NCBI GenBank assembly: GCA_012514745.1
Contig: JAAYZR010000002.1
Span: 40,962-104,961, forward strand
Origin: Candidatus Undivivens industriae
GTDB lineage: Bacteria; Omnitrophota; Gorgyraeia; Gygaellales; Profunditerraquicolaceae
Direction: 5' to 3'
DNA length: 64,000 bases
This document shows, one piece after another, positions 3,834-43,796 of this stretch. The notes below the pieces were generated by a model. The model was not told the origin of the DNA. It saw only the letters and a program-made list of their open reading frames with translations, and made no database searches. Both the position numbers and the translations under genes were made by a program. The stretch's first letter is position 1. Every line of letters starts with the position of its first letter.

Positions 3834-5314
3834 ACGCCAGGCTTTTTATAAACGGCAGGTTCGTTCACGGAGGCGCCAGAAAGACGGTAATCAATCCTTC
3901 CTGCGGCGTGCCGTTGTGCGAAGCGGAGTTGGCTCTGGAGCCGGAATTGGAAGCGGCTCTGGATGGCGCGCGCAGGGCGTTCGACTCAGGTCCCTGGAAA
4001 GACATTTCTTTGGATAAACGCCGGGAATGCCTTATGAAAATGGCCGCCGGTATCCGCGAACGCGCCGCTGAGCTGGCGCAGTTGGAGACATGGAACGCCG
4101 GCAAGCCGATAAAAGAAACCACCTTCATGGATGTTCCCTCTTCCGCCCAGGTCTTCGAAGAGACCGCCGCGCATTTCGAGGAGTATTTGAAGGATCCTGC
4201 GCCGGCGGGCCTTCCGCCGGAGGCCGACGGACGCCTGCTGCGCGAGCCGCTGGGAGTGGTCCTGCTGATCGTCCCCTGGAATTATCCGCTTTTAATCGCC
4301 TGCTGGAAACTCGCCTCAGCCCTTGCCGCGGGCAACTGCGTGATATTAAAACCTTCTTCGCTTACTCCTTTAAGCGCGATCGCCCTGGCAGAAATAGCCT
4401 GCGCGGCGGGTATACCGGACGGGGTGTTGAACGTAGTGAATTGCGAGGGGGGACTTGCGGGGAAGAAATTGTGTGCCGACCCCAGGGTCGACATGATATC
4501 TTTTACAGGAAGTAACGAAAGCGGGGGAGCCATTCTCGGCCATACCGCCGTTTCCCCGAAGAAGACGCTGATGGAACTGGGAGGGAAATCCGCAGCCTTG
4601 GTCTTCGCCGGCAGCGATCTGGAGACCGCGGTGAACAGTTGTCTTGTTTCCGTGTTTCTGAACCAGGGGCAGATGTGCACGGCGATGTCGCGCATACTGG
4701 TGGAAGAGAGCGTTTACGACGCCTTCTGCGCGAAGTTTGCCGCCGCAGCGGAGAAGATCGAGGTCGGCGACGCCGCAGATTTCCGGACGCAGATGGGTCC
4801 TTTGATATCGCAGGGGCAGAGGGAAAAGGTCGCTTCCTTTGTGGGGGAGGCGTTGAGCCGGAAGGCCAGGCTGCTCTGCGGCGGCAGAGCGCCGTCCGAA
4901 GAAAGTCTCCGCAGCGGGTTTTTTTACGAACCGACGGTGTTGGCGGGAGTGACCTCGGAAATGAATATCTTCCGCTGCGAGGTCTTCGGCCCGGTGGCGG
5001 CGCTGAACAGGTTCAAGAATCAGGAAGAGGCGCTGCGTCTTTGCAATGATTCCGATTACGGGCTGGCCGCTTCCATCTGGACGCGGGATGAAGGCGCGGC
5101 TTTAAAACTCTCCTCACGGATAAACGCCGGCACTGTCTGGATAAATACCTACGGGATGTTCTATCCCGGTCTGCCATACGGCGGGTTCAAAAAAAGCGGA
5201 TTCGGCAAAGAAATGGGGAGGGCGGGATTCCTGGAATATACGCGCCTGAAGAATGTGGTGCTGGATAGGAGCGAAGGCGGTAAACCCCTGGTGAGTTACT
5301 GGTACGGTTTTTAA
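3830..5314 (+). CDS. NAD(P)-dependent aldehyde dehydrogenase
   Basis: 494 aa; ALDH glutamate and cysteine regions (ELGGKSAALVF, catalytic-Cys region NQGQMCTAMSR); ATGA start overlap with the aldolase gene. Confidence 0.85.
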   Translation: MNARLFINGRFVHGGARKTVINPSCGVPLCEAELALEPELEAALDGARRAFDSGPWKDISLDKRRECLMKMAAGIRERAAELAQLETWNAGKPIKETTFMDVPSSAQVFEETAAHFEEYLKDPAPAGLPPEADGRLLREPLGVVLLIVPWNYPLLIACWKLASALAAGNCVILKPSSLTPLSAIALAEIACAAGIPDGVLNVVNCEGGLAGKKLCADPRVDMISFTGSNESGGAILGHTAVSPKKTLMELGGKSAALVFAGSDLETAVNSCLVSVFLNQGQMCTAMSRILVEESVYDAFCAKFAAAAEKIEVGDAADFRTQMGPLISQGQREKVASFVGEALSRKARLLCGGRAPSEESLRSGFFYEPTVLAGVTSEMNIFRCEVFGPVAALNRFKNQEEALRLCNDSDYGLAASIWTRDEGAALKLSSRINAGTVWINTYGMFYPGLPYGGFKKSGFGKEMGRAGFLEYTRLKNVVLDRSEGGKPLVSYWYGF

Positions 5315-8737: not shown

Positions 8738-9172
8738 ATGAGGCGGAGCGCTTTTACAATAATAGAAATGATGGCGGTGGTGGTAATTGTAGGAATATTA
8801 TCATCGCTGGCCGTTCTGGATTTTCATAAGACAGTGGAAAGGAACAAAGCCAAGGCCGCGGAGTATCATCTTAAAAGCATCTATAACGCCCAGAAAAGGT
8901 ATAAACTGGATAATGGCGAGTACTTTGTCTGTTCCAACACCGAGGGAGTGGTAAAGGAAGAGGAAATAGGCAAGGCATTATTCCCTAATTCAATAAATGC
9001 CGATGCTTACAGGAATATAGGAGATACGCTTTTTTCTTACGATATACAGGCCACGGAGGACGGAGGATATACGGTTACGGCGACGCGTAAATCCGGCATG
9101 TGCGCCGGCCGCACGGTCAAGATCACCGATGCCGGAGGGGTCCCCGACAAGGAGTGCCCGGTATGGAAATGA
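8738..9172 (+). CDS. type IV pilin / T2SS pseudopilin-like protein (prepilin-type N-terminal methylation domain)
   Basis: 144 aa; N-terminus MRRSAFTIIEMMAVVVIVGILSSLAV has the prepilin motif with Glu+5, but Ala instead of Gly at -1. Confidence 0.7.
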   Translation: MRRSAFTIIEMMAVVVIVGILSSLAVLDFHKTVERNKAKAAEYHLKSIYNAQKRYKLDNGEYFVCSNTEGVVKEEEIGKALFPNSINADAYRNIGDTLFSYDIQATEDGGYTVTATRKSGMCAGRTVKITDAGGVPDKECPVWK

Positions 9173-10455
9173 AGAAGAAGTTTTTTGTATTGGCCGCGGT
9201 ATTGCTGTTTCTCGCCGCCTTCCAACTCTACTCGAAGCATGCCGCTTACGCCAAGGATAAATACCTTAAGTACCTGCCCCAGAACCAGTTTGTGGATATG
9301 GTCAGCAAGGACGTGAACAAGACCGTCTCAGAAGTCATTTGTTCTTATACCACGAATCTGTTCAAGAAGGTCAAAGAATGCGAAGCCTGCATAAACGCCC
9401 AGGCAACATGCCCGGACTGTTGTTTGAACAACGCGAAGACGGCGATCGCCTGCACGCCGTCCGCCGGGCCCCAGTATCAGTGTTCGGCTGCCCCTTTCAG
9501 CGCCTCCGATACCGCCGAAGGCTATTGCAGCGCTTACAAGAGCTGTATGTCGGGTTATACTTCTTCCCCCAATCTGTGTTCCGACCCGAGTTCTCTGAAT
9601 TGCCACAAACGGGGATGCGGTTCCACGGAACCGGATGGAGAATGCGACGGCTACATCTGCGACGAGAATAACCTTTCTCCGAAGACGCCGGCATGTTCCC
9701 CCGTCTCGGACAGCGGGCTGGCTAAATGTTCTTCATACTCGCCTTACACCAGCATCACCAAAATCTGTACCAAGACCAACCCCCATACGGGACAGTGCAT
9801 AGAATACCGTTACAAGTATGCGGTGAATCCGCAGTATCAATCCTGTATCAATAAATGTAATACTTATGTCGATAAATACAGGAATTGCCGGCAGACGGTG
9901 GAATGCTGCAAGAAGAATGCCTGCACCAGCGGATATTCGGCGAATTGCACACAGTCCGACTGCGAGATCAGGCTCTCAAGCACGGCCTGCGCCAATTATA
10001 CCGCCGGCGACTGCGTGGCGCTGGAAAATCAGGTGCTCGAGTGCCTGGATGCCGCCGGGGACTGCCGCCAGTGTTTTAAGGATATAGATTCCGATTTCGC
10101 GTATAAATTCGTGGCCAAAAGCCGGGAAAAGGTCGTGGTCATCTGGCAGATGTCCTCCACCCCCTTGATGACTCCGGCCGACGGCACCAAGACCTATTTC
10201 TATACCATGATCAAGGTGATAGACGATGAGAGCGGAGACGTCGTGCACCAGAGTTTCGTGAGCCAGAAGAATTTCAGCGAGGCATTCTCGGTGTTCGCGG
10301 CCACGAACGTCTCGGAAAAGACCGGCGATAATCCCGGTCTTGAAGCGGGCAGAAGATATCGTGTGAAACTATACTATTTCATTCCGGAAGTGGGAGAAGG
10401 CCTTAAAATAGAGGTGAATACGGTGCAGATGATAATAATCAGGATTAGAGAATGA
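9163..10455 (+). CDS. secreted cysteine-rich protein of unknown function (about 40 Cys in the N-terminal 330 aa plus a Cys-free C-terminal domain)
   Basis: Start taken at MEMKKKFFVLAAVLLFLAAF (signal peptide), overlapping the pilin stop by 10 nt; no recognisable family. Confidence 0.6.
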   Translation: MEMKKKFFVLAAVLLFLAAFQLYSKHAAYAKDKYLKYLPQNQFVDMVSKDVNKTVSEVICSYTTNLFKKVKECEACINAQATCPDCCLNNAKTAIACTPSAGPQYQCSAAPFSASDTAEGYCSAYKSCMSGYTSSPNLCSDPSSLNCHKRGCGSTEPDGECDGYICDENNLSPKTPACSPVSDSGLAKCSSYSPYTSITKICTKTNPHTGQCIEYRYKYAVNPQYQSCINKCNTYVDKYRNCRQTVECCKKNACTSGYSANCTQSDCEIRLSSTACANYTAGDCVALENQVLECLDAAGDCRQCFKDIDSDFAYKFVAKSREKVVVIWQMSSTPLMTPADGTKTYFYTMIKVIDDESGDVVHQSFVSQKNFSEAFSVFAATNVSEKTGDNPGLEAGRRYRVKLYYFIPEVGEGLKIEVNTVQMIIIRIRE

Positions 10456-10510
10456 TAGCATCATCATCCCGTCCGCCGCCACGGCCCGGGATGTAAAAAA
10501 GGAGGTAGGT

Positions 10511-11257
10511 ATGTGGTACAGAAAAGTTGTTGCCGTTATCGCGTTTTGCGTCCTGGCTTCACCGGCTTTAGCCGAGAAGACCAGCATGACGGTCAATCCC
10601 GCGCCGATGACGGAGCAGGTGCTGGGAACGACGGAGGCGAATTTGCCGCCGGCTAAATTCCCCAAGTTCGCCAATGAAGGGGACAACGCCGAATGCAAGG
10701 AATATCTGGAGGCCCAGTATCCCGAAGGCTTGAGCCTGGCCCCGATCTGCACAGTCAGCAAACTCGGGGACGGGACAAAAGTGGGAGAATGCCAGGATTA
10801 CACTCAGATCCCGGGAATGGAAAAAGTTAGCTTCGAAGTCCCGGAGGCCTATAGAAAGACCGCCACCGTATTGGTTACCTGGACGATAAGAGTGGAAGGG
10901 TTGGGCACTGAGGGTTATACTATCTGGCCGCAGTTGTGTAACAGTTGGCACGGGACGTCGGAGCAGTCTTTTCCCCAGGACGTGGTTAAGACCCGGCTTT
11001 ATGTGAACAACACCCTGCTGGGGCAGGACGCGGTGATGACCATCCCTGCGGGGAACAGCGTCACCCTTACCCAGGTCCAGGACCCCACGCATACCGGCAG
11101 TTATCTGATCAAACCGAGCGATTTCGGCGGAGAACTCCCGGCGACCCTGGACATCCGGCTGAAATGGATAAACGAAACATCCATGAAGATCGTCAGCCCG
11201 GCCAACATGCGCAGTATGCTCATCACGCTGACGCCTATAGGTGATATAAAAGAATAA
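10511..11257 (+). CDS. secreted hypothetical protein
   Basis: 248 aa; signal peptide MWYRKVVAVIAFCVLASPALA; good GGAGG RBS at 10499-10503; 4 Cys; no family recognised. Confidence 0.55.
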   Translation: MWYRKVVAVIAFCVLASPALAEKTSMTVNPAPMTEQVLGTTEANLPPAKFPKFANEGDNAECKEYLEAQYPEGLSLAPICTVSKLGDGTKVGECQDYTQIPGMEKVSFEVPEAYRKTATVLVTWTIRVEGLGTEGYTIWPQLCNSWHGTSEQSFPQDVVKTRLYVNNTLLGQDAVMTIPAGNSVTLTQVQDPTHTGSYLIKPSDFGGELPATLDIRLKWINETSMKIVSPANMRSMLITLTPIGDIKE

Positions 11258-11276
11258 GAGGCGTTTTTTGGTAAAA

Positions 11277-11320
11277 CCCGCCGGCCGCGGCCTGGCGCAT
11301 GGCCGGCCGGCGGAGTTTTT
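11277..11320 (+). terminator. rho-independent terminator after the 10511-11257 gene
   Basis: GC stem CCCGCCGGCC (11277-11286) pairing with GGCCGGCGG (11305-11313), followed by TTTTT at 11316-11320. Confidence 0.55.
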
Positions 11321-11342
11321 CCACACTCAGTCCTGGGATCCG

Positions 11343-11497
11343 CAGGATCCGGGTGATCTCGGCGGAGAACTCCCGGCGGGCCAGGACATCCGGTTGAAAA
11401 GGATAAACCAAACGTCCAGAAAGATCGTCAGTCCAGCTGACTGACATATGCAGCACACCGTTACGATGACGCCCAGAGGGGATATAAAGGAATAAGG
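11343..11497 (+). repeat. degenerate direct copy (about 80% identity, with indels) of the last 150 nt of the 10511-11257 CDS; gene remnant
   Basis: 11111-11260 (…GGCGGAGAACTCCCGGCGACCCTGGACATCCGGCTGAAATGGATAAACGAAACATCCATGAAGATCGTCAGCCCGGCC…GATATAAAAGAATAAGAG) aligns to 11343-11497 (…GGCGGAGAACTCCCGGCGGGCCAGGACATCCGGTTGAAAAGGATAAACCAAACGTCCAGAAAGATCGTCAGTCCAGCT…GATATAAAGGAATAAGGA); the copy has an in-frame TGA and a frameshift. Confidence 0.6.
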
Positions 11498-11502
11498 ACA
11501 AG

Positions 11503-12324
11503 ATGACGCTAAAGCCTCGGGAAAACAAAAGCTTTACTCTGATAGAAGTCCTGGTTTCCATTATTATAGCCGTGATCATCTTCGCCGCACTTTCCAAAGG
11601 CATGGTCGGAGGAGGCTTCCTGCTTAAACAGGTGGAGAATAAGTCCCGCGCATGCGGGGTGACAGCGGCCAAGATGGAGGAGTATCTGGCCAAGGCGTAT
11701 TCTGCCCTGGAATCCGGGACATACAGCGGCGATCCCGTAGATTACGGCTCGAAGCCGGTATTCGACTGGACGGTGAAGGTAGAGAAAAAATGGATGGGAG
11801 ACGACCCCGACACCGTCGACCAGGAAGGAGTGCCTTACAATCTGATAACCGTGAATTCTTCGTATGATGAGACCGACTACAAGAATATCTTTCATACCAA
11901 GAACGTTCGGTTCGTCAATATGGTGCCTTACCCCTACGTTCACGCGGAGATAAAGACTCTTTCTTCCTCCTTAAGCGTTCCCCCCAACAGTTACACCGAG
12001 ATCTTCAGGATCAAGATAGATTACGAGGTGGCGAAAGACCTGATGATAATATATAATATCGCCATCAAAGTGAAGAACGCCGGCGGACTGGAAGCCACCA
12101 ATACCATATATACCAAGTGTTTCGTCGACTCAGAGGGCAAGGACATAGAGACGAGGACTCCCATCATAACGCAGCCTTTGATCAGCAATGTCGTGGGCGT
12201 CAACAACGTTCCGCCCGGAGAGCATACCGTTTCCGTGCAGTGGTATAAAGACACCGGCGCCGGGGACATTTCTTTGAAGGAGATCAACGTCATCGTGGTG
12301 GCGTTCGAGCACAAACAGTCATGA
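11503..12324 (+). CDS. prepilin-type N-terminal domain protein (minor pilin / pseudopilin-like)
   Basis: 273 aa; N-terminus MTLKPRENKSFTLIEVLVSIIIAVIIFAAL has the FTLIE motif with Ser at -1. Confidence 0.65.
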   Translation: MTLKPRENKSFTLIEVLVSIIIAVIIFAALSKGMVGGGFLLKQVENKSRACGVTAAKMEEYLAKAYSALESGTYSGDPVDYGSKPVFDWTVKVEKKWMGDDPDTVDQEGVPYNLITVNSSYDETDYKNIFHTKNVRFVNMVPYPYVHAEIKTLSSSLSVPPNSYTEIFRIKIDYEVAKDLMIIYNIAIKVKNAGGLEATNTIYTKCFVDSEGKDIETRTPIITQPLISNVVGVNNVPPGEHTVSVQWYKDTGAGDISLKEINVIVVAFEHKQS

Positions 12325-12908
12325 AGAGTAAAGAAGCTTTCACGATAATAGAACTGCTCCTCGGAGTAGTCCTGGTCAGCGCCGTGATGATGATCATCGG
12401 CCTCGGGTTTATCTTCTTCAAAAAACAGATCGATATCTACGCCGAGCGCCAGCATATCTATTCGCAGATCGCTTATACGCTGGAGGATATGAAGCTGAGA
12501 TTGATAAGCGCCACCTGGGTTGACAACGACTCCGTGTTCAATCCGCCGGCGTTTAGCGGTGAACCGCAGGTAAATAACGAGATGTTCTTTCGCGGGCAGA
12601 AGGATATCTACAATGTCACCCCGGACGATCTGACCGACGACATCTGGTATAAATACGCGGTAGACCAGTCAACCGGGGACCTCGTGCTTTATACCTATAA
12701 TTCCGGCAAGGCGCTGCAAAAAAAGGAAGTGATGGTGGAAGGCAAGTATAAACCTAAACTGGAGTTCAGCTATAAGAAAGGTTACGAACCGAATTTCTGC
12801 GTAGTCACCCTTACGGTGCCGAGCGGGCGAGCCAACTTCATCGACATCCAGAACGACATCAAAAAGATGGAAGGGCTGCGCATCTGGTTCGTCGACGTGG
12901 TCAGATGA
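12321..12908 (+). CDS. prepilin-type N-terminal domain protein (minor pilin / pseudopilin-like)
   Basis: 195 aa; N-terminus MKSKEAFTIIELLLGVVLVSAVMMI has the motif with Ala at -1; ATGA overlap with the upstream gene. Confidence 0.65.
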   Translation: MKSKEAFTIIELLLGVVLVSAVMMIIGLGFIFFKKQIDIYAERQHIYSQIAYTLEDMKLRLISATWVDNDSVFNPPAFSGEPQVNNEMFFRGQKDIYNVTPDDLTDDIWYKYAVDQSTGDLVLYTYNSGKALQKKEVMVEGKYKPKLEFSYKKGYEPNFCVVTLTVPSGRANFIDIQNDIKKMEGLRIWFVDVVR

Positions 12909-13246
12909 TAATAGTCGTTATAGCGTTGTTCATAATAATGTCGGTGGTGGTATTCGCTTTCTTCGCCTACATACCGAACGTCCATTATCTGATCGAGAAC
13001 GACCTGCTGCGCAGGGCGAATTCCAATGCGGCGCTTTACGGCATGCAATACGGCCAGCTCGCCTGCCGCGCAAAGACTCTCTCCACGGAAGAGGGAAAAA
13101 CAAACACGGCCTCCGTGGATATGGGGTATCTCAAGAAGACGGACAGCAAGGAAATAGACAAGCTGCTCTTCGATATAAAGTTATTATCGGAAGACGGCGG
13201 ACAGATGCTGGACATCGAAGTTAAGCACAGCCTTTCTTCACAATAA
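12905..13246 (+). CDS. small membrane-anchored protein, possibly an atypical minor pilin partner
   Basis: 113 aa; N-terminal hydrophobic helix MIIVVIALFIIMSVVVFAFFAYI; ATGA overlap (translational coupling) with the preceding pseudopilin gene; no prepilin motif. Confidence 0.4.
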   Translation: MIIVVIALFIIMSVVVFAFFAYIPNVHYLIENDLLRRANSNAALYGMQYGQLACRAKTLSTEEGKTNTASVDMGYLKKTDSKEIDKLLFDIKLLSEDGGQMLDIEVKHSLSSQ

Positions 13247-13265: not shown

Positions 13266-14255
13266 ATGAAAAAAAACCGTATTATGATCCTGAGTACGGC
13301 GGCAGCCGTATTTCTCCTCGCCGCCGGCTCGGCGGCCCTGGTATATCACAAGGCCGTCAGCGAAAGGGAAGAGCAGAACCGCCGCATACTTGAGGCGCGC
13401 AGGAATGCCTGGAAGTCCCTGGAAGAAAGGCTGCGGGCGGACGCCTTTCGCAGCGCGGGGGTTGTCCCAGGCATTGTCGTGGAGGATCTTTCTACCGGCT
13501 GGAGGATAGAGATCAATCCGGACATGCTTTTCCCTTCGGCCAGCCTGGCCAAAGTGCCGATCATGGCTTCCTGTTTTCTCTCCGCCGCCGGCAACAAGCT
13601 TGATCTGGAGAGTAAGGTAAAGCTGTTGCGGCGGGACAAAGTCGCCGGCTCCGGAGTGATAAAGAACCTGCCGGACGGTTCGGTATTCAGCGTAAACGAG
13701 CTGATGACCATCATGATAACTAAAAGCGATAACACCGCCAGCAATCTGTTGATAGACCTTCTGGGCCGGAATTATCTGAACGAATCGTTTCATAAACTGG
13801 GGTTGAGAAACACCAACCTGGCCAGGAAGATGATGGATTTCTTCAGCAGAAAACAGGGCAGGGAGAATTATACTACCGCCAGGGACATGGCTTTTCTTCT
13901 GGAAGAGATCTACTACGGCCGCCTGATAAACAGGGAATATTCGCGCCGATGCCTGGAGATGCTCATGGCCCAGAAGATCCGCGACCGTATCCCGGCAAGG
14001 CTTCCTCCCGGCACGCCTGTGGCGCATAAAACCGGGCTTGAATACGGGGTCTGCCATGACGCCGGAATAGTATTTGTTCCGGAAGGCAATTTTATCATAT
14101 GCGTGCTTACCAGGCATAATTACAAGAATTCCTATCCTGCCAAGAGATTCATCGCCCGCATAGCCGGAAAAGTCTATGATTTCTACCGCACCGAGATCCC
14201 CCTGGCCACTGCCGCCGTCAGCGGAAAAAACAATAACTACGCCTCAGGGAATTGA
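13266..14255 (+). CDS. class A beta-lactamase-family serine hydrolase
   Basis: 329 aa with N-terminal signal/anchor; S-x-x-K (SLAK), SDN (KSDNTASN) and KTG (HKTGLEYG) motifs in the correct order and spacing. Confidence 0.8.
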   Translation: MKKNRIMILSTAAAVFLLAAGSAALVYHKAVSEREEQNRRILEARRNAWKSLEERLRADAFRSAGVVPGIVVEDLSTGWRIEINPDMLFPSASLAKVPIMASCFLSAAGNKLDLESKVKLLRRDKVAGSGVIKNLPDGSVFSVNELMTIMITKSDNTASNLLIDLLGRNYLNESFHKLGLRNTNLARKMMDFFSRKQGRENYTTARDMAFLLEEIYYGRLINREYSRRCLEMLMAQKIRDRIPARLPPGTPVAHKTGLEYGVCHDAGIVFVPEGNFIICVLTRHNYKNSYPAKRFIARIAGKVYDFYRTEIPLATAAVSGKNNNYASGN

Positions 14256-14430: not shown

Positions 14431-15108
14431 GTGAGCCGGGAAAAACATTCGTTGCGTGAAATAAAACACGCCAGGACAAAGATCGCGATTATGAAAGCCC
14501 TGGTCGTGGCCATGGAGAAGGCCCGCTATGACGATATCTCCATAAAACGCATCTGCCGGGACGCCGAGATCTCCGAGGGAACATTCTTCAATTATTTCCC
14601 GGAAAAGATCGACATCGTCCATTTTTTTATACATACCCTCCTGTTAAAAGCGATCTGGCAGGCTCAGCGGTTTGTCCCGGAGCGCCATAAGCTTCTCCTG
14701 GTGGAGGCGGTTATGGAGAATCTCGCCGGTTCTATCCCGAATGCAAACATTATGTATCAGTTGATCGCCGCCATGATCAACCGGCGGGAATTACCGCGGA
14801 AAGGAACTGTAACCGCGCTGGAAAGAGCTCTCCTGTATCCCGGATGCGAGGGGATAGAGGAGATAGAAATGACCGATATCGAGTCCTTCTTCGCGGAGTG
14901 TCTCAAAGGAGCGGTGAAGAACGGGGAATTGCCTAAGAAAACCGATTTGGAAGACGCCGCGGTATCCTTGATGACTATTTTGACCGGGACTCTGCTGGCG
15001 ACTAAATTCTCGGACAACGATAACGGGAACATCATGTACCATTTCAAACGCCAGTTGCGGATATTGTGGCGCGGCATCGGCGCCCTCAAGCGAGGCTGCA
15101 ATGAATAA
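14431..15108 (+). CDS. TetR/AcrR-family transcriptional regulator
   Basis: 225 aa; N-terminal HTH (ISIKRICRDAEISEGTFFNYFPEKIDI) typical of TetR; sits immediately upstream of an efflux pump operon. Confidence 0.75.
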   Translation: MSREKHSLREIKHARTKIAIMKALVVAMEKARYDDISIKRICRDAEISEGTFFNYFPEKIDIVHFFIHTLLLKAIWQAQRFVPERHKLLLVEAVMENLAGSIPNANIMYQLIAAMINRRELPRKGTVTALERALLYPGCEGIEEIEMTDIESFFAECLKGAVKNGELPKKTDLEDAAVSLMTILTGTLLATKFSDNDNGNIMYHFKRQLRILWRGIGALKRGCNE

Positions 15109-16447
15109 ACTTTGCCTGTGGACGGCTGTTTTCTTTGCCGTGGGACAGCCGGTTTTAACAGCGACCCCGGCGGCGGCAGAATCCGGCAGGAGCGTCGTCA
15201 GGGAAGTCGGCCTGGATGATGTGATACGCCTCTCCCTGCATAACAGCGAAGAGTTGAAAATACAGGATAATCAAGTGGGCAGAAGCGAAGGGGTCTATAA
15301 ACAAGTTCGCTCCGACATCCTGCCGCATTTAAACGTCAAAGCGGTCTGGACCAACAATATGGAATATCCCGATTCCGCTGCCGAGGATATGACCGACCAC
15401 GCTCTGGAAGGCGGCTTGAGCGCTTCACAGGTGCTCTGGTCATTCGGCAAAGTGGCGTTCGCCGTCAAATCCTCCAGGCAGTCGCTGGAGGCGGTGAAGT
15501 TCAACCGTGAAGCCGGACGGCAGGATATAATCTACGCCGCCAAACTGGGATATTACGGCACTCTTCTTGCCAGAAATACCCTGTCCATAACCGAGAAATC
15601 ATACGCTAATGCCGTTGAAAACAAAGAGCTTATGGGAAAACGCGCTTACGGAGGTCGCAGTTCAAAATATGAGATAATACGCATGAACGCGGAAGTGGCG
15701 GCGCGTATTCCCATGGTGAATGATGCCAGGACGGAATTCGATGCGGCCACCGAGACCCTGAAAAAGATGATAGATGCCGAGCCCGATTGCAAGCTTGCCC
15801 TCAGCGGGAATTTCTCGCAAGAATACGCCGATTTTAATTACGCGTCCCTGGTTTCTCTGATGAACGCGCGTGAACCGTCTTTGAAAAGCCTGAATAAGAA
15901 TATTGAAGCTGCCGAGTCGCAGTTAAGAAGCAGATATGGCGCTCTGCTTCCCACCTTATCCGCTTTCGCGTCTCTAAGCCGGGCGGGCGGCTCAAATCAG
16001 CATTCCTTTCTGCGTGGCGACAGGCTGGATCCATATACCAGCGCCGGACTGAAGGTGGAATTTCCCATCTGGGAAGGTGGATTGAAAGAAGCGCAATTAA
16101 GGCAGTCCCATGCGGATAAAGAGATAGCCGTTTTGCGCAGAAAACAGGCCGGCAAGGAACTGCTCCTGGAACTCAAAAGGTCCTGTTTGGAATACCGGCA
16201 GTACAAAAGCAACCTGGCGGCCAATATCGATGCCGTAAGCCTGGCCGAAGAATCTTTTAGGCAATCCCAGGAGATGTTCTATTCCGGGCAGATAAGCCTG
16301 GCGGATCTGAATGACGCGGAGCTGCTTTTGACGAACCAGAGGCTCAATAAGGAAATCACGCTTTACAATATAAATATCACACTCGCGAAGATAGAGAAGT
16401 TGATCGCGGGGGAATATGAAGAACGGGGGCGCGATGACCGGTCTTAA
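15101..16447 (+). CDS. outer membrane efflux protein (TolC/OMF family)
   Basis: 448 aa; signal peptide; two-repeat helical/beta architecture typical of OEP family; first gene of an OMF-MFP-RND set. Confidence 0.7.
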   Translation: MNKLCLWTAVFFAVGQPVLTATPAAAESGRSVVREVGLDDVIRLSLHNSEELKIQDNQVGRSEGVYKQVRSDILPHLNVKAVWTNNMEYPDSAAEDMTDHALEGGLSASQVLWSFGKVAFAVKSSRQSLEAVKFNREAGRQDIIYAAKLGYYGTLLARNTLSITEKSYANAVENKELMGKRAYGGRSSKYEIIRMNAEVAARIPMVNDARTEFDAATETLKKMIDAEPDCKLALSGNFSQEYADFNYASLVSLMNAREPSLKSLNKNIEAAESQLRSRYGALLPTLSAFASLSRAGGSNQHSFLRGDRLDPYTSAGLKVEFPIWEGGLKEAQLRQSHADKEIAVLRRKQAGKELLLELKRSCLEYRQYKSNLAANIDAVSLAEESFRQSQEMFYSGQISLADLNDAELLLTNQRLNKEITLYNINITLAKIEKLIAGEYEERGRDDRS

Positions 16448-17126
16448 GAGCCGAAAGATAATCTATGCGCTCGTGGTCGCGGCCTGTCTTTCTGCGATAG
16501 CCCTGCGGGTCAAGGTCGTAAGAGCCGGGCGCATCCGGCCCATCATCAGTTATTATGCCCAGTGGCAGAAGGACGGCAAACCGGTGGAGGTCAAGACAGT
16601 CGAATCTAAGGATCTGCCGGTGTATTCGCGTTTCACCGTGAAAGTGTCGGATGGGCGCCTTGCCGAAGGGTTCGTTACCGGCGACGTCAAAGATGTCCTC
16701 CGGGAAGGCCAGGACATATACGATGAAGACCGGGCGGTCCCGTGCGCAGCAGTCAGGAAAGCCGGCAAGGAACTGGACATAGGCACCGGGATGTTTCCCG
16801 TGCAGGTGATATTCAACTCTCCGCGCGATCCCGGGGCTTTCTTTGTGGTCTCCGCGCACACGAGAACGCTGCGGGATGTCCTTGCAGTCCCCAACGAGGT
16901 ATTGGATATCTCCGGAGGGGAGTATTTTATATGGCAGGACGATAACGGCTTTGCTAGGAAAAAGAAAGTTTCGGTCGGTGCCCGCGACGGTTACGGCGCG
17001 GTGATAACTTCCGGTTTGCGCTCCGGGGACAAGGTGGTATTCAACGGGCAGAGCGGCCTGCGGGAGAATGAGAAGCTTCTGGTTCAAGAGCAGCCCGCCG
17101 CCGTAGGTGAAGAGAAGAAACAATGA
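16434..17126 (+). CDS. RND efflux periplasmic adaptor (membrane fusion protein, HlyD family), short form
   Basis: About 230 aa; N-terminal TM anchor then beta-rich lipoyl/beta-barrel-like segments; positioned between the OMF and RND genes with overlapping stops and starts. Confidence 0.6.
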   Translation: MTGLKSRKIIYALVVAACLSAIALRVKVVRAGRIRPIISYYAQWQKDGKPVEVKTVESKDLPVYSRFTVKVSDGRLAEGFVTGDVKDVLREGQDIYDEDRAVPCAAVRKAGKELDIGTGMFPVQVIFNSPRDPGAFFVVSAHTRTLRDVLAVPNEVLDISGGEYFIWQDDNGFARKKKVSVGARDGYGAVITSGLRSGDKVVFNGQSGLRENEKLLVQEQPAAVGEEKKQ

Positions 17127-20100
17127 TAGAATTCTTCGTAAAACACAGGATCACCACGATCATGTTCATCCTGGTTTTCGTGGTGCTCGGCATTTTCAGC
17201 TATTCCAACCTGATGATCGAGAAGACCCCTAAAGTGGATTTTCCGATCGTCACGGTCTCCGTTACCTATCCCGGGGCCACCCCGTTGGAAGTGGAGACCC
17301 TGGTGGTAAAGAAAATAGAGGACGCCGTCTCGGAGATCTCCGAGATCAAGAAGATCAAGAGTCAGTCTTACGACAGTTTCGGGTTCATTTACGTGGAATT
17401 TCTGCTCTCCGCCGACGTGAACGTCAAGTCCATAGAAGTGAAGGACAAGGTGGAGGCTATCCTCAACGATCTTCCAGACGCCGTGGAAAAGCCGGTCATC
17501 GAGAAATACGACCCGCTCATCGAACCGGTGCTGGACCTGGTTTTGTCCTCGGACAACGGCGACCTGCGCGAGGTGTATGAATACGCGGATAAAACGCTGA
17601 AAACCAGGTTTTCCTCCATACGCGGCGTGGCCAAGGTAGACGTCTACGGCGGGAAGAAACGACAGATAAACGTGCGCCTCGATCCTATGCTGATGAAACA
17701 ACATTATATCAGTATAAACGAGGTGGTCGCCGCGCTGATGGCGCGCAACAAGAACGTCCCTGCCGGAGATATAGAAAAGGGGTTTGACGCCCTTAGCGTG
17801 CGTTTTACCGGGGAGTTCCAGAGCGTGGAGGAGATAGCGCAGACCCGCCTTGTCTCCACCGACGCCGGAGAGTTCCGGCTGAAAGATATCGCTTCGGTAG
17901 AGGACGGTTACAAGAAGATATCCAGTATCGCCAGATATAACGGGAAGGAAGTCGTAGCTCTCTCCGTGAACAAGGCCTCGGACGGCAATGCCGTGTACAT
18001 AGCGCAGGAAATGAAACGCCGCCTGCCGGCGTTACGCAAAGAGCTGCCGCAGGGGATGTATCTTGATATCGCCACCGACACCACCACCTTCATAGTCAAC
18101 GAAACAGCCGACACCGAATGGAATATTTTCATAGGGATAATCCTGACCATCGCCCTGCTTTTGCTTTTTCTTGGGAGGCGGGACATGTCTTTTATTTCCG
18201 CCATCATCATCCCCACCTCGATCATCTCCACATTTTTTCCCATGTGGGGGTCAGGGTTTTCCATAAACATGATGACCCTGCTGGCCATAGCCACGGTGCT
18301 GGGGACACTGATCTCCAACGCCCTTGTTATCCTGGAGAACGTGACGGTGCATATGGAACGCCACGATGATCCGGAGAAAGCGGCGATAGAAGGGACCAAA
18401 GAAGTTTTTATTCCCGTCATCGCCTCTACCGGCACCAACCTGGTGGTATTCCTGCCTATCGCCATGATGGGCGGGATGGTCGGGTTGTTCATGAAGTCCT
18501 TCGGTTTGACGGTAGTTTACGCCACTTGTTTCTCTCTCTTGGCCTCGTTCACCCTCACGCCCATGCTCTGTGCGGCGATGCTTAAAACGGACGGAGGCAA
18601 AAAGGCCGTTCCCGGCGGAAAAACGTCGAAACTGATATCTTTGTGGAACAAGATTTTATCCGGGATCGGCGCTATAATGGATCTGCTGAAAAAGGGATAC
18701 AGGCGTATATTCGACTGGATGTTCCGTTTCCCGGGTTTTACGATTTTCCTGTCGGCGCTGGCGCTGGCAGGGTCATTTTTGCTCGTTCCCTTCGTGGAAA
18801 ACGACTTCGCCCCGAAATCAGACGAGGATAAGATAGTGGTCAACTTTTCTCTGCCGCAAGGGTCGACTATCGAGCGAACCGAGGCTGCAGCGAAGCGGAT
18901 CGAAGCTTTCCTGGAGACCATACCGGAAAAGAAGTCTTATTTGGTCAATATCGGGGACAACGGCGTGGAGAACGCCAGGGTAACCCTGGACCTGCTTCCT
19001 TCGGCGGAACGCAGGCGCAGCGACCTGCAGGTTATCGATTCCCTGACCGTTTTTCTCTCCCGGCTCCCGGACGTGGAAGCCAGCAGCGTGCGCCAGGGGA
19101 TGAGTTCATCGGTCAGCGACGGAGACGTGGCCATAGATCTTTACGGCAGCGATTACGCGGTGATGGCGGAGATAGCGGGACAGATGAAGGAAATAATGTA
19201 CAAGAACGGCGCGTTCCAGAGCGTGATATTATCCTACAAGACGCCCAGAAAAGAGCTCCGTTTGATCCCCGACGAGGAGAAGCTGAACGAGTTCGGTCTG
19301 ACAGCCGCCGGGGCGGGTGCGGTGCTGCGTTATTCCATCTTCGGAGAGGATTCCAACATTTATAAGGAGAAAGGCGAGGAGTACAAGGTTAACGTGGAGC
19401 TGGACGACCGGTATGCCGGGAATTTCGACGATATCAAGGAGATATCCATACTTTCGCGCAAAGGATTGATTCCGGTCAGCGAACTGGGAGAGATCAGGAT
19501 GGATAAGGCTGTGCCGACTATCTGGCGCAGGGACCGCAGGCGCATCATCCGTCTGGACGGCTTCCTGGCGAAAAGTTCGCTTGGTATCGTCAGCGGAGAA
19601 CTTGATAATGAATTCAAGGCGGTAAAGTTTCCTCCGGGTTACAGTTATAAGTATGCGGGGTATTCCGAATACATGAACGAATCCACGGTTGAGCTCGGCA
19701 AAGCCTTCCTGCTGGCGGTGATCCTGACCTTCATGCTGCTGTGCGCCATAATGAATTCCCTAATAGCCTATCCTTTGGCGGTCATGGCTACGGTGCTTAC
19801 CTCTTTCGCGGGGATGATACTCGGGCTGTTCTTCATGAATCAGAGTATCAACATCGCTTCCATGATGGGAATGGTCATGCTGGTGGGCATGGTGGTTAAT
19901 AACGCCATCCTGCTCTTGGACCAGACCCTGGTGAAGATGAGAGAGGGGTTGCCGGTTAAGGATGCCCTGTGGCAGGGGGCTTCGGATAAATTCCGGGCCA
20001 TCATCATGACTTCCCTGGCTATAATACTGGGGGTCGTCCCCCAGATGTGGAGCTTGAGCAAGGTCAAGCAGTCTATGGGCGCGGTCATGATCGGCGGGAT

Positions 20101-20197
20101 GCTGGCTTCGATAGTATTCACTTTCGTGCTCGTCCCGGTGCTCTTTTGGTACCTGGAACGCTTCGAAAGAAAATTCCTCAGGAAAAGAACGGCATGA
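17123..20197 (+). CDS. RND multidrug efflux transporter (AcrB/AcrD/AcrF family)
   Basis: 1024 aa; 12-TM plus two large periplasmic loops architecture and conserved ACR_tran blocks. Confidence 0.9.
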   Translation: MIEFFVKHRITTIMFILVFVVLGIFSYSNLMIEKTPKVDFPIVTVSVTYPGATPLEVETLVVKKIEDAVSEISEIKKIKSQSYDSFGFIYVEFLLSADVNVKSIEVKDKVEAILNDLPDAVEKPVIEKYDPLIEPVLDLVLSSDNGDLREVYEYADKTLKTRFSSIRGVAKVDVYGGKKRQINVRLDPMLMKQHYISINEVVAALMARNKNVPAGDIEKGFDALSVRFTGEFQSVEEIAQTRLVSTDAGEFRLKDIASVEDGYKKISSIARYNGKEVVALSVNKASDGNAVYIAQEMKRRLPALRKELPQGMYLDIATDTTTFIVNETADTEWNIFIGIILTIALLLLFLGRRDMSFISAIIIPTSIISTFFPMWGSGFSINMMTLLAIATVLGTLISNALVILENVTVHMERHDDPEKAAIEGTKEVFIPVIASTGTNLVVFLPIAMMGGMVGLFMKSFGLTVVYATCFSLLASFTLTPMLCAAMLKTDGGKKAVPGGKTSKLISLWNKILSGIGAIMDLLKKGYRRIFDWMFRFPGFTIFLSALALAGSFLLVPFVENDFAPKSDEDKIVVNFSLPQGSTIERTEAAAKRIEAFLETIPEKKSYLVNIGDNGVENARVTLDLLPSAERRRSDLQVIDSLTVFLSRLPDVEASSVRQGMSSSVSDGDVAIDLYGSDYAVMAEIAGQMKEIMYKNGAFQSVILSYKTPRKELRLIPDEEKLNEFGLTAAGAGAVLRYSIFGEDSNIYKEKGEEYKVNVELDDRYAGNFDDIKEISILSRKGLIPVSELGEIRMDKAVPTIWRRDRRRIIRLDGFLAKSSLGIVSGELDNEFKAVKFPPGYSYKYAGYSEYMNESTVELGKAFLLAVILTFMLLCAIMNSLIAYPLAVMATVLTSFAGMILGLFFMNQSINIASMMGMVMLVGMVVNNAILLLDQTLVKMREGLPVKDALWQGASDKFRAIIMTSLAIILGVVPQMWSLSKVKQSMGAVMIGGMLASIVFTFVLVPVLFWYLERFERKFLRKRTA

Positions 20198-25955: not shown

Positions 25956-26300
25956 ATGATGGTATATTTTACTCCTCAAGAAAAACGCGCCCTGGTTTTT
26001 CTCTGCTGCGTGGTGCTGGCGGGTTCTGTCGCAGAGGCGGCGGGCAAGCATTTCCGGCGCAGCAGGCCTTTGCCGAGGATCTATTACCGCGTGGGGAAGC
26101 TGGATTTGAACCGCGCCGGTAAAGAGGAGCTCTGTTCTTTGCCCGGGATAGGAGAGAAATTGGCGGAACGCATATGCGTTCTGCGCGCCCGGCGCGGCGG
26201 ATTCGGGAGTATCGGGGAGTTGAAGGAAGTCGAAGGAATCGGAGAGGCGAAATACGGCAGGCTGAAGGATTTCTTTTATCTGGAAGGAGAGGAACGATAA
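25956..26300 (+). CDS. comEA: competence protein ComEA (helix-hairpin-helix DNA-binding)
   Basis: About 114 aa from MMVYFTPQEK (the ORF-track start 25872 would run through the leuS terminator); TM anchor plus HhH pair LDLNRAGKEELCSLPGIGEKLAERI...ELKEVEGIGEAKY. Confidence 0.75.
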   Translation: MMVYFTPQEKRALVFLCCVVLAGSVAEAAGKHFRRSRPLPRIYYRVGKLDLNRAGKEELCSLPGIGEKLAERICVLRARRGGFGSIGELKEVEGIGEAKYGRLKDFFYLEGEER

Positions 26301-27637
26301 AACGGGAGATCATTCTTCTCCATCCTGCGTTATGGCCGGCCTTATCGTTCGCCTGCGGGATAGCGGCGGCTGTCCCGTTCACGCTTTGCTGTGTCTGCGC
26401 AGTGGCGGGGATTACCGTGATACTGCTGATGCGGGACAGGAACGCGGCGTGGTTCGCGGCAGTAATTACACTTTGTTTCTTCCTGGGCGGCGCCCGCGGC
26501 CGCGCCGGCGAGATGAGGCCGGCCGACGATTACCGGGGCCTGCTGCGGACGGGCAGGGAGATTTATCTGCTGCGAGGCCGGTTCCGCGGGGAGGCTGTCC
26601 GGCGCGGACGGGGATACCTGTTGGATATGAAATTGTCGGCTTTCTGCGCGGGCGGCGGGTGGCAATCGGCGTCCGGGACGGCTGTCGTGCTGACTCATTT
26701 TTACCCGGGACATTCTTCCGGCAGGGAGGCCGTATTAAAATGCCGCTATTCGCGGTTCAAACATTTTTCCCTCGACTCCGGGCGGGACCTGTGTTTTTTA
26801 TCCGGGGAGAAGAACGGCGGGTCTTTACGCGACAGGATTGGAGGATTATTGAATTACAAGCATACGCCGGCTGGAAAGGGGATAATCTCGGCCATGGTGC
26901 TGGGAGATAAACGCGGCATCCCGCCTCTCGTCAAGCGAACGATGCTGCGTACCGGCACTCTGCATCTGTTGGTGGTCAGCGGTTTCAACACCGGCCTGGT
27001 GGCTTTTTTCGCGCTTTTTTTGCTGAAAGCCGCGCGCGTGCCGAGAAAGGTCAGGATTCTTCTTGCCTGTTGCGCCGTGGCCGCGTATTGCCCGGCCACC
27101 GGAAGCGCGCCCCCGGTTTTCCGCGCCGCGGTGATGACCATCCTCCTGTTGTCCGCGTATCTTATGCGCAGGGAAGCCGTTTTGCTCAATCTGCTCGGCT
27201 GTGCCGCCGCGGTACTGCTGTTCTGCGATCCGCAGATGCTCTTCAGCGTCAGTTTCCAGCTCTCTTTTCTCAGCGTCTTTGCCATAGCCGTATTATGCCC
27301 CTTATTCCGTGCCCTTTCCGGCAACGCGGCCGCGGGCGGCAAATTACTGCGCTGGAGCAGGGAGGCGGGAATAACCGGTTTTTCCGCCTGGATAGGAACA
27401 TTACCGTTCGTATTGTTCTATTTCCGGCTCTTCTCCTGGGTGGCTGTGCCGGCGAACCTGCTGGCGGCTCCTCTAACTTCTTTGATTACTATCTGCGGCT
27501 TCTGTCAGATCATCAGCGTCCCCTTCCTGCCGCGTCTGGCCGGATATTTCGCTTTTATCTCCGACACCCTGATCACGGCTCTGGTTTCTCTGCTGGTTTT
27601 CCTGGAACGTTTCCCGGGCGCATGGCTTAAGATCTGA
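26174..27637 (+). CDS. comEC: ComEC/Rec2-family competence membrane protein (short form without the metallo-beta-lactamase domain); start uncertain
   Basis: ComEC competence-domain block MLRTGTLHLLVVSGFNTGLVAFF and polytopic TM profile. The only ATG is 26174, overlapping comEA by 127 nt; the first in-frame GTG (26402) would remove a TM helix. Confidence 0.6.
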   Translation: MRSARPARRIREYRGVEGSRRNRRGEIRQAEGFLLSGRRGTIKREIILLHPALWPALSFACGIAAAVPFTLCCVCAVAGITVILLMRDRNAAWFAAVITLCFFLGGARGRAGEMRPADDYRGLLRTGREIYLLRGRFRGEAVRRGRGYLLDMKLSAFCAGGGWQSASGTAVVLTHFYPGHSSGREAVLKCRYSRFKHFSLDSGRDLCFLSGEKNGGSLRDRIGGLLNYKHTPAGKGIISAMVLGDKRGIPPLVKRTMLRTGTLHLLVVSGFNTGLVAFFALFLLKAARVPRKVRILLACCAVAAYCPATGSAPPVFRAAVMTILLLSAYLMRREAVLLNLLGCAAAVLLFCDPQMLFSVSFQLSFLSVFAIAVLCPLFRALSGNAAAGGKLLRWSREAGITGFSAWIGTLPFVLFYFRLFSWVAVPANLLAAPLTSLITICGFCQIISVPFLPRLAGYFAFISDTLITALVSLLVFLERFPGAWLKI

Positions 27638-28483: not shown

Positions 28484-29136
28484 TAACCCGTGTTTTATCC
28501 GGCATCTCGCGTTATTCCGGTTTCTGGTCCGGGATATACTGCCGGCTGCGGTTATTGACCTGTCCCTTCGGCAGGATATCGGAATTTGTCCCGGCTCGGG
28601 GGCGTATTCTCGACCTGGGGTGCGGGGCCGGCGTATTCTCTTTTCTGCTTTCCGTTTCTTTGCCGTCGAGGCAGATAATCGCAATGGACTGCCGAGCGGA
28701 GAGGCTCCGGTCCTCGGCGCGCGTCGCGGAAGAGAACGGTTTCGGGGCGCTTTCTTTCGTGCAAGGGGATATCCTTTCTTTACCGTATCCCGGACCCGCG
28801 GATTGCATATTGCTGGTCGATGTCCTTTATCAACTGCCGTTCAAGCAAAAAACCGCCGTTATCAGGAAGTGTTATGAAACGCTGGCTAATGACGGGGTGT
28901 TGCTTGTCAAAGAGACCGACGCCGGACCGGGGTGGAAAGCCTTGTTCTGTTATCTGCAGGAAATGATGCTGGCGCGGTTGATAAAACTGAACCGGGGGCG
29001 CGTTGAACCTCTTGCCTGCGCCGCCTGGATGAAGCTGCTGGCGGAAGAAGGATTTTCCGCCGTCATGCGCAGAATAGACAAAGGATATCCGTATCCCCAT
29101 GTCCTTTTCGTGTGCCGTAAGACGGAGAGGGGATGA
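28480..29136 (+). CDS. class I SAM-dependent methyltransferase
   Basis: 218 aa; motif I ILDLGCGAGVFS and acidic post-I loop (AMDCRAE); ATGA overlap with the GT2 gene. Confidence 0.75.
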   Translation: MITRVLSGISRYSGFWSGIYCRLRLLTCPFGRISEFVPARGRILDLGCGAGVFSFLLSVSLPSRQIIAMDCRAERLRSSARVAEENGFGALSFVQGDILSLPYPGPADCILLVDVLYQLPFKQKTAVIRKCYETLANDGVLLVKETDAGPGWKALFCYLQEMMLARLIKLNRGRVEPLACAAWMKLLAEEGFSAVMRRIDKGYPYPHVLFVCRKTERG

Positions 29137-42719: not shown

Positions 42720-43796
42720 ATGACCAATATTAAGAATTATCTCAAGATGATGCTGGACAGGAACGCTTCGGACATGTTCTTCCGCGCCGGGTCAAACGTG
42801 CGTCTGCGCATAGACGGCGAGGTCGTCTCCATTGACGAAAGGGTGATCACCCTTGACGAAGTAAACGAAGCGGTCAAGGAATTGACCTCAAACGAGTTAA
42901 AGGACTTCTTTCAGCGCACGCTGGACGTGGACTTCGGAGTGTATGTCCCGGAACTGGATAACCGTTTCCGTATCAGCATCTTCATGCAGAGAAATTGGCC
43001 GGCGCTGGTGGTCAGGAGCATTCGGTCCGCCATACAGACTTTCGAGGAATTACATCTGCCTTCCGATATCCTCTCCAGGCTTTCCATGGAGAAAAGAGGT
43101 TTGATCCTTCTGACGGGCAGCGTGGGCAGCGGCAAATCCACCACGATAGCCAGCATGATCGAGTACGTGAACAATAACGCCAACAAGCACATCCTGACTG
43201 TGGAAGAACCGATCGAGTTCACCTTCAAGGATAAGCGTTCCATCATAAATCAGAGGGAGCTGGGGATAGATGTGTCTTCATATGCGGTAGCGCTGCGCGC
43301 GTTCACACTGCAGAGCCCGGACGTGATTTTCATCGGCAACATCAGGGATTACGAGACCATGTCCGCCGCGCTCACCGCCGCCGAGACCGGCGTGCTGGTA
43401 TTTAGTACTCTGCATACCGTTAACGCCCCGCAAACGCTGGAACGCATCGTTAATTTTTTCCCTCCGCATCAGCATGCCGAGGTAAGGACTCAACTGTCCT
43501 ATCTGCTTAAAGGGGTAATTTCCCTGCGGCTTCTCCCTTCCAAAGAGGGGAAGGGACGGCTCCCCGCTTACGAAACCATGCTGCAAACTCCCACCATCAG
43601 CCGTCTGCTCAGGGAAGGAAAGACCTGGGAGATCCCCCAGTTCGTCGACGACGGCGCCGTATACGGTATGCAGTCTTTCAGCCAGGCGCTGGTAAGACTC
43701 GTCAGAGAAGGAAAGATAACGGAAGAGACCGCCCTGATGAACTGTGATAACAAAGACGAATTCATGCTCGCCCTGAGAGGCATCTGCAGGGGCTGA
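42720..43796 (+). CDS. pilT: type IV pilus retraction ATPase PilT (PilT/PilU family)
   Basis: 358 aa; Walker A LLTGSVGSGKSTT, Asp box, Walker B and His box in PilT arrangement. Confidence 0.85.
   Translation: MTNIKNYLKMMLDRNASDMFFRAGSNVRLRIDGEVVSIDERVITLDEVNEAVKELTSNELKDFFQRTLDVDFGVYVPELDNRFRISIFMQRNWPALVVRSIRSAIQTFEELHLPSDILSRLSMEKRGLILLTGSVGSGKSTTIASMIEYVNNNANKHILTVEEPIEFTFKDKRSIINQRELGIDVSSYAVALRAFTLQSPDVIFIGNIRDYETMSAALTAAETGVLVFSTLHTVNAPQTLERIVNFFPPHQHAEVRTQLSYLLKGVISLRLLPSKEGKGRLPAYETMLQTPTISRLLREGKTWEIPQFVDDGAVYGMQSFSQALVRLVREGKITEETALMNCDNKDEFMLALRGICRG

Follow-up and report, generated by a model that had tools for sequence, protein, structure and literature searches.

Positions 8738-13246 of a 64,000-nt stretch of DNA from Candidatus Undivivens industriae (Omnitrophota; assembly GCA_012514745.1, contig JAAYZR010000002.1, positions 40,962 to 104,961, forward strand; this whole stretch is called the window below, and positions are given in its coordinates) hold six consecutive plus-strand genes that encode, in order, a pilin, a Cys-rich secreted protein, a jelly-roll secreted protein, two putative minor pilins and a leaderless pilin-like protein. 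We read this cluster as the form that a type IVa pilus (T4aP) pilin and tip module takes in this lineage. We consider it fairly probable that it serves as the six-gene pilin module of an Omnitrophota T4aP, with a role at the filament tip for the pilin-like and secreted proteins. The three prepilins carry Ala, Ser and Ala, respectively, at position -1 of their predicted leader junctions; bacterial class III signal peptides with a residue other than Gly at this position are an accepted variant, and in Omnitrophota they are routine, so that the feature is largely ordinary. The evidence comprises the sequence motifs of the prepilins, a conserved cassette that some relatives carry near T4aP genes, and the mixture of Gly, Ala and Ser at -1.

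The analysis covered the window, 10 kb on either side of it and a set of related loci (labels L002-L035), which are metagenome contigs or genome loci obtained through a scan of species-representative genomes and through other searches. For the scan, a narrowed pilin alignment served as the profile, a 44-sequence version being too diverse. It returned 13 loci, of which 11 are labelled as Candidatus Omnitrophota metagenome-assembled genomes and two as 'uncultured Planctomycetales'. Proteins of the window also recur on many metagenome contigs and in assembly GCA_030154505.1.

Prepilin motifs and the residue at -1

A first-pass annotation of the window had proposed three leader-peptide junctions with Phe at +1, Glu at +5 and Ala, Ser and Ala at -1, and the open reading frames (ORFs) and junctions are exactly as it described them. 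Each motif lies within 10 residues of the earliest start codon that could be used, and at least 16 residues without charge come after it. All three prepilins match the PilFind motif and have 14 or more uncharged residues behind it. They also follow the general pattern of type IV pilins, with about 21 mostly hydrophobic residues past the cut site and Glu at +5. A six-frame scan of the window for class III-like motifs with a hydrophobic stretch behind them returned these three only. The start of the gene for the 195-amino-acid (aa) protein overlaps the stop of the gene for the 273-aa protein.

The N_methyl model PF07963 (cut-off 21.2 bits) matches the 144-aa protein at 22.7 bits and the 273-aa protein at 25.0 bits, both above the cut-off. 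The 195-aa protein scores 14.6 bits, below it; its ortholog in L018 scores 28.8 bits. With TIGR02532 (cut-off 16.3 bits), the 144-aa protein passes at 24.9 bits, and the other two prepilins fail at 12.5 and 11.6 bits. In the profile of the 144-aa family, the Phe+1 column coincides with residue 1 of the solved mature pilins (Myxococcus PilA, GspG, PAK pilin and Thermus PilA4), which supports the predicted cut site. The alignment of this small-pilin family also has invariant Glu5 and Glu34, a 'IYNAQKRYKLDNG' block, an invariant C-terminal Cys pair (C122/C140) and a terminal C..W motif. Glu5 is likewise invariant in the ortholog alignments of the 273- and 195-aa proteins, and in both of these families the class III N-termini and the globular parts are conserved. 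These are genuine prepilin-like proteins.

An upstream start codon, whichever is chosen, cannot create a Gly-1 site, since the DNA itself dictates the residue ahead of Phe+1. Ala-1 is kept in all five orthologs of the 144-aa pilin (78-99% identity), while the leaders otherwise vary (MRRNA, MKRNA, MEQRA, MNRKA); constancy of this one residue amid changing neighbors indicates that it is selected and not an error. The leader of the 195-aa pilin is polymorphic in length within the species, with Ala-1 kept: MKSKEA in the window (12321-12340) is three residues shorter than MKRKKSKEA in near-identical strains (L002, ~13585-13612).

The first-pass annotation had also called for a comparison of -1 residues across relatives. 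Among the best 150 of 4,900 relatives found by a phmmer search with the 144-aa pilin, the residue is Gly in 77, Ala in 53, Ser in 9, Cys in 2 and Thr in 1. The 144-aa family proper, reduced to 51 representatives at 50% clustering, has Ala in 24, Gly in 21, Ser in 5 and Cys in 1. On the fetched Omnitrophota contigs, 59 distinct prepilin N-termini have Ala (22), Gly (19), Ser (15), Thr (2) or Phe (1) at -1, so that Gly, Ala and Ser are used about equally and Gly is in the minority (19/59). The Omnitrophota differ in this from the known class III signal peptide or N_methyl motif (PF07963, TIGR02532, IPR012902, PilFind), as they do in the occurrence of Thr. Between lineages, orthologous -1 positions drift among Gly, Ala, Ser, Thr and Cys: orthologs of the 273-aa protein, present in all cassettes, have Gly, Ser or Cys, and those of the 195-aa protein have Gly, Ala, Ser or Thr.

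Gly, Ala and Ser are also mixed on single contigs, joined by Thr in L030. The cassette of L026 has Ser, Ser and Ala and its second pilin set Gly, Ala, Gly and Ser; L034 has Gly, Gly, Gly, Ala and Ala, and L035 has Ala, Gly, Ser, Gly, Ala and Ser. Since these residues stand side by side on the same contigs, one peptidase per organism must accept several tiny residues. To judge from the sequences, the Omnitrophota probably have one tolerant prepilin peptidase that would take Gly, Ala and Ser about equally.

This pattern is less exotic than it first appeared. The first-pass annotation had started from the premise that bacterial prepilin peptidases are near-strict for Gly at -1, which the literature does not support: published bacterial definitions allow Gly or Ala, or [GAS], at this position (PMC7212644, PMC3244431), the PilFind motif itself being [GAS]-x4-[DE] (PMC3244431), and the whole ComG set of Streptococcus sanguinis, five pilins, has Ala-1, with ComC given as the processing enzyme (PMC7212644). 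The premise is true of the classical proteobacterial model enzymes but does not extend to bacteria at large. With Ala-1 sets and the [GAS] rule already in print, no exotic peptidase has to be invoked for the cluster. The suggestion of a relaxed or altered peptidase, or else of an unusual pilin lineage, thus stands in part: the lineage is distinctive, with a cassette found only in Omnitrophota, and the enzyme must accept more than Gly, but the exotic reading was overstated.

Archaeal class III signal peptides often have Ala or Ser at -1, a similarity that could be taken to favor a specialised peptidase for the non-Gly pilins, either an archaeal-type PibD/FlaK-like enzyme or a second dedicated one, separate from the enzyme for Gly-1 pilins. 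In favor of such an enzyme, no peptidase gene turned up for inspection in the ~520 kb searched; a further point is the distribution of the residues along the contigs. The pilin directly downstream of pilC, which has a Pfam Pilin domain and is putatively the main pilin, has Gly-1 in every contig seen, whereas non-Gly residues are concentrated in the other pilins, many of them on the same contigs. This distribution would also fit a slower processing that is tolerable for low-abundance subunits, which is speculation on our part. We regard a specialised peptidase as improbable. Phe+1 and Glu+5 are conserved throughout, the linked machinery (PilM, PilQ, PilB, PilC) is bacterial, the free drift among Gly, Ala, Ser, Thr and Cys at orthologous positions fits one tolerant enzyme better than two, and a bacterial ComC has already been described to process a set with Ala-1 only (PMC7212644).

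The archaeal analogy drawn in the first-pass annotation fails on related grounds. Phe+1 and Glu+5 are characteristic of bacterial pilins, and relatives carry the cassette beside genes for PilM, a PilQ-type secretin, PilB and PilC. The window encodes LptE, BamD, Lnt, SecA and a lipid A acyltransferase, which, together with its PilT/PilU-family ATPase, identify the host as a diderm bacterium with a retractile T4aP. Membership in the archaeal class of PibD/FlaK/EppA substrates, which goes with an archaeal host, FlaI/FlaJ-type machinery and unconserved Phe+1 and Glu+5, was rejected in view of the bacterial host and machinery and the retention of Phe+1 and Glu+5.

The proteins without Gly-1 might instead stay uncleaved, as bitopic inner-membrane pilin mimics such as assembly or regulatory factors. 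Strom and Lory are said to have found in 1991 that replacing Gly-1 in P. aeruginosa PilA impairs cleavage; in addition, the 195-aa protein falls below the N_methyl cut-off and the sixth cassette gene encodes no leader. We consider this explanation very improbable. Phe+1 and Glu+5 are strictly kept and are relevant only after cleavage and for assembly, the streptococcal Ala-1 pilins are described as processed (PMC7212644), and the restriction of -1 to tiny residues over deep divergence implies selection by a peptidase.

What remains of interest at -1 is the equal use of Gly, Ala and Ser throughout the phylum. With Gly in the minority, annotation rules and hidden Markov models tuned to 'GFxxxE' under-call Omnitrophota pilins, and several pilin orthologs are indeed cropped or unannotated in public gene calls. 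A separate observation concerns start codons. In one Omnitrophota clade, none of the codons ATG, GTG and TTG precedes the FTLLE/FSLIE motif of the cassette pilin (L016 ~9990-10016, L017 ~4200-4227, L014 ~2650-2674, L025 8224). A GGAGG-like Shine-Dalgarno sequence followed by ATT suggests an ATT start codon there. The public gene call for this pilin in L025 (8308-8616) is shortened to 102 aa and has lost the signal peptide.

A six-gene cassette and its link to type IVa pilus genes

Table 1. Features of the cassette and other genes of the window discussed in the text.
Feature	Position	Strand	Remarks
Pilin, 144 aa	8738..9172	+	ORF; predicted leader MRRSA, predicted mature start FTIIEMM
Secreted Cys-rich protein, 430 aa	9163..10455	+	Gene called here in public contigs; Sec-type N-terminus ending AYA↓K (by inspection)
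Secreted protein with predicted jelly roll, 248 aa	10511..11257	+	Sec-type N-terminus ending ALA↓E (by inspection)
Decayed partial duplicate of the jelly-roll gene 3' end	11349..11437	+	89-nt direct repeat, 84% identical to 11114-11202
Putative minor pilin, 273 aa	11503..12324	+	ORF; predicted leader MTLKPRENKS, predicted mature start FTLIEVL
Putative minor pilin, 195 aa	12321..12908	+	ORF; predicted leader MKSKEA, predicted mature start FTIIELL
Leaderless pilin-like protein, 113 aa	12905..13246	+	ORF; last cassette gene
Beta-lactamase2-domain protein	13266-14255		PF13354 E = 1.4e-63; hydrophobic N-terminus
PilT/PilU-family retraction ATPase	42720..43796	+	T2SSE domain; TIGR01420 396.8 bits vs cut-off 319.1

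BLAST found the six genes of the cassette (Table 1), with their order preserved and with 30-45% identity between the proteins, in L012-L018, L024-L030 and L033-L035, which amount to about 15 distinct Omnitrophota contigs. The locus scan and the homolog searches found the cassette and its two secreted proteins in Omnitrophota only. The first-pass annotation had regarded the cluster as interrupted by two secreted non-pilin proteins; because both genes are kept in every cassette, they are core components and not interruptions. The 113-aa protein that closes the cassette occupies the same position in all complete cassettes. It starts with a hydrophobic helix (MIIVVIALF...), has neither a cleavage motif nor Glu5, and gave no family match in Pfam or NCBIfam, diverse orthologs included.

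As the first-pass annotation had noted, the cluster itself is not accompanied by an assembly ATPase, a platform protein or a secretin, none of which occurs in the window or its 10-kb flanks, and a PilT homolog indeed lies 30 kb away, unlinked to the cassette. The linkage, over a few kb, is found in two lineages of relatives. Downstream of the cassette in L016, L017 and L025-L030 come lipA, a pilM-like gene, two small genes, a PilQ-type secretin gene, pilB, pilC/gspF and four more pilin genes, and in L034 pilB, pilC and two pilin genes lie 7 kb upstream of the cassette. Its position next to PilM, secretin, PilB and PilC genes argues that the cassette belongs to a bacterial T4aP and not to an archaeal-type system.

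In L016 (4125-15482) and L025 (2774-13622), the cassette sits between lplA, for lipoate-protein ligase, and lipA, for lipoyl synthase, where a glycine-cleavage cluster ends. The arrangement suggests that in this clade the cassette entered a housekeeping operon, immediately ahead of the pilM, secretin, pilB and pilC genes.

The linked genes and the cassette pilins bear some resemblance to type II secretion systems (T2SS), and the six genes might build a T2SS-like pseudopilus, with the two Sec-exported proteins as cargo that would leave through the secretin. GspG (E = 2.8e-11) and GspH match the N-terminus of the 144-aa protein, the 273-aa protein weakly matches GspJ, the linked platform protein is best matched by GspF and the linked ATPase scores 579 bits against GspE, and the two proteins with Sec-type N-termini are always co-encoded with the pilin genes. 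The pilin matches are far below the cut-offs, however, and cover the N-terminal helix only (GspG 43.6 vs 88.85, GspH 32.4 vs 80 and GspJ 15.7 vs 64.85). The ATPase, which has an MshEN domain, scores higher as PilB (617 bits to TIGR02538), and the secretin scores higher as PilQ than as GspD, the PilB and PilQ scores being just under the NCBIfam equivalog cut-offs. A PilM-like gene is present in the related loci, in which no GspC, GspL or GspM was detected, and the window encodes the retraction ATPase PilT. A secretion role is thus unlikely, if the least unlikely of the alternatives considered here.

A DNA-uptake (competence) pilus, in which the 144-aa pilin would be a ComP-like DNA receptor feeding ComEC, appears slightly less likely again. 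The 144-aa pilin and its orthologs repeatedly match ComP_DUS (PF16732) weakly, residues K53, R54 and R117 hardly vary across the 144-aa family (conserved at 90% or more), and the window contains, besides PilT, a ComEC/Rec2-related gene at 26174-27637. The ComP_DUS match of the 144-aa pilin scores 24.5 bits, below the gathering threshold of 27.3, and covers the generic pilin core; the ComEC-related gene lies 13 kb off among unrelated genes and scores 105.7 bits against an equivalog cut-off of 190; and the two secreted proteins have no tie to DNA. The ComEC/Rec2-related protein has 487 aa, a Competence domain and a sub-threshold DUF4131 match, and gave no match to a metallo-beta-lactamase domain.

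Among the closest known parallels to an Omnitrophota T4aP pilin and tip module is fimU-pilVWXY1Y2E of P. aeruginosa, a type IVa minor-pilin operon that includes a non-pilin tip protein. Both combine several pilin-like genes with Sec-exported non-pilin proteins in one operon, both are unlinked or loosely linked to pilMNOPQ and pilBCD, and both comprise four pilin-like proteins, one with a non-canonical N-terminus, along with a PilT/PilB/PilC/PilM/secretin machine. The cassette differs in that it shares no sequence similarity past the N-terminal helix, has two small Omnitrophota-specific proteins instead of the large PilY1, and has Ala or Ser instead of Gly at -1.

The ComGC-GG proteins of Streptococcus (PMC7212644) offer a second comparison. 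They too have leaders with a non-Gly residue at -1, Phe+1 and Glu+5, all with Ala-1 in the ComG set, and one member with a non-canonical N-terminus (ComGG there, the 113-aa protein here). Com pili, however, occur in monoderm hosts without a secretin, and their pilin genes share an operon with comGA and comGB, whereas the host here is diderm and relatives encode a secretin. Assignment of the cassette pilins to the ComG class was rejected, given the diderm host and scores of 30.7 bits against 75 for ComGC and 19.1 against 70 for ComGD, which come from the N-terminus only.

Large ORFs without a Pfam match lie beside the cassettes of L035 (18001-20939) and L024 (4395-7214) (more than 2,226 aa and 939 aa), and a 1,325-aa ORF adjoins the pilus gene cluster in L031 (13666-17643). 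They recall the giant ORFs reported for Omnitrophota.

Secreted proteins and the proposed tip complex

The two secreted proteins, Omnitrophota-only, uncharacterised and linked to T4aP genes, are the second remaining point of interest. The 430-aa protein has about 24 cysteines that are invariant among the cassette orthologs, and gave no sequence match in Pfam, NCBIfam or the PDB. Its AlphaFold2 (AF2) model is moderately confident, with a predicted local distance difference test score (pLDDT) of 69 overall and of about 80-89 over residues 305-430, which form a C-terminal beta-sandwich. For the 248-aa protein, AF2 predicts a jelly roll (pLDDT 88.8), and homologs fall into 38 clusters, of which all those labelled with an organism are Omnitrophota hypothetical proteins. 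PDB profile searches with either family returned no match, and profile-profile comparison of the two families detected no homology between them.

Foldseek weakly matched the 248-aa model to TNF-like lectins, capsid jelly rolls and phage tail-tip proteins, and the C-terminal domain of the 430-aa model to jelly rolls of lectins and phage receptor-binding domains. In both proteins the beta-sandwich predicted as a jelly roll would recall TNF-like lectins (PLTL of Photorhabdus, the N-terminal domain of BC2L-C) and the receptor-binding domains of phage tail tips or fibres. No sequence homology connects the cassette proteins with these, and carbohydrate binding by the cassette proteins is only putative. 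With query template modelling scores (TM-scores) of at most 0.36 and identities of 7-15%, the likeness is a hint and not an assignment. The 430-aa protein is a candidate pilus-associated binding protein.

A DsbA-like gene in L034 (3284-4060) and DsbD and thioredoxin-like genes in L035 (3416-4620) lie a few kb upstream of the cassette. Their presence near distant cassettes fits a disulfide-rich exported protein with about 24 invariant cysteines.

The jelly-roll gene has intact tandem paralogs in L024 and L035. In the window, the decayed copy of its 3' end (Table 1) sits in the 246-nt gap ahead of the gene for the 273-aa pilin; given the intact paralogs elsewhere, the lineage of the window seems to have lost a second jelly-roll copy.

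We propose the following course of events. The three prepilins would insert into the inner membrane, where an ordinary bacterial PilD-type aspartic peptidase, encoded elsewhere in the genome, would remove their short basic leaders by cutting between the tiny -1 residue (Ala, Ser and Ala) and Phe+1, the Omnitrophota enzyme being about equally receptive to Gly, Ala and Ser. The four pilin-like proteins would then form a low-abundance priming or tip complex of the filament. This complex may display the disulfide-rich and jelly-roll proteins as binding modules, much as PilY1 rides on FimU-PilVWX in Pseudomonas. Assembly of the filament would fall to PilB, PilC, PilMNO and the secretin, and its retraction to PilT.

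Several observations weigh against this reading. In the window and its 10-kb flanks, the cassette is without linked assembly genes, as there is no assembly ATPase, platform protein, secretin or peptidase gene. A search of ~520 kb, comprising the window and the related loci, with a regular expression for the GxGDxK active site and by tblastn with a P. aeruginosa PilD query returned no peptidase. Genes of Peptidase_A24, the family whose members remove pilin leaders and usually methylate the new N-terminus, are likewise absent from the window, its 10-kb flanks, the 10 kb downstream of pilC in L026 and three further cassette loci. The globular parts of the 273- and 195-aa proteins matched no known minor-pilin family in Pfam, NCBIfam or PDB profiles. 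Against NCBIfam, the 273-aa protein has weak GspJ and HpsC matches only. Pfam scans of diverse orthologs of the 273-, 195- and 113-aa proteins returned N_methyl only and no PilV/W/X or GspH/I/J/K assignment, and PDB profile searches with the pilin families matched the N-terminal helix only. The 144-aa protein may be either a major or a minor subunit. Between the cassette and pilM in the L016/L025 clade stands the housekeeping gene lipA, which makes co-transcription with the pilus machine only putative. Finally, the TM-scores behind an adhesin role of the secreted proteins are weak and the jelly roll is a very common fold, so this role is a guess from modelled structures.

T4aP genes occur in nearly all Omnitrophota, and a role of these pili in attachment to host cells has been proposed (Seymour et al., PMC10066038). 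In the light of that proposal, the two secreted proteins are concrete candidates for attachment factors. A bolder version of our reading would have two separate parts. The S1 pocket of the peptidase might be relaxed by nature, with little preference among Gly, Ala and Ser and an occasional Thr or Cys; and the cassette may build a pilus tip of an undescribed kind, with the disulfide-rich and the jelly-roll protein as phylum-specific binding proteins, by which these ultra-small, possibly epibiotic or predatory bacteria might attach to host cells. We put this forward as a tentative and rather doubtful possibility.

Neighboring genes and the rest of the window

The gene that follows the cluster had been described as class A beta-lactamase-like. 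Its position is confirmed (Table 1), but not its membership in the cluster: it adjoins the cassette in the closest relatives only, and it was rejected as part of the cassette because other genes follow distant cassettes. It scores 131.3 bits with the class A model NF033103, against a cut-off of 200, and its product may be no resistance beta-lactamase but a divergent enzyme of class A-like or penicillin-binding type. Downstream of it lie a TetR gene and an OEP-MFP-RND efflux operon (14431-20197).

Scans for promoters and terminators gave counts at chance level. All ORFs of the window that have a family assignment or belong to the cassette are on the plus strand, and the GC skew is positive in each 2-kb bin across the window, which together amount to an unusually strong strand bias over 64 kb.

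Positions 27758-36877 hold genes for a glycosyltransferase, a methyltransferase, three B12-binding radical SAM enzymes and a YdjC-like deacetylase, followed by that for a 907-aa protein (34154-36877) without a Pfam match. This run may be a cluster for cell-envelope or natural-product modification.

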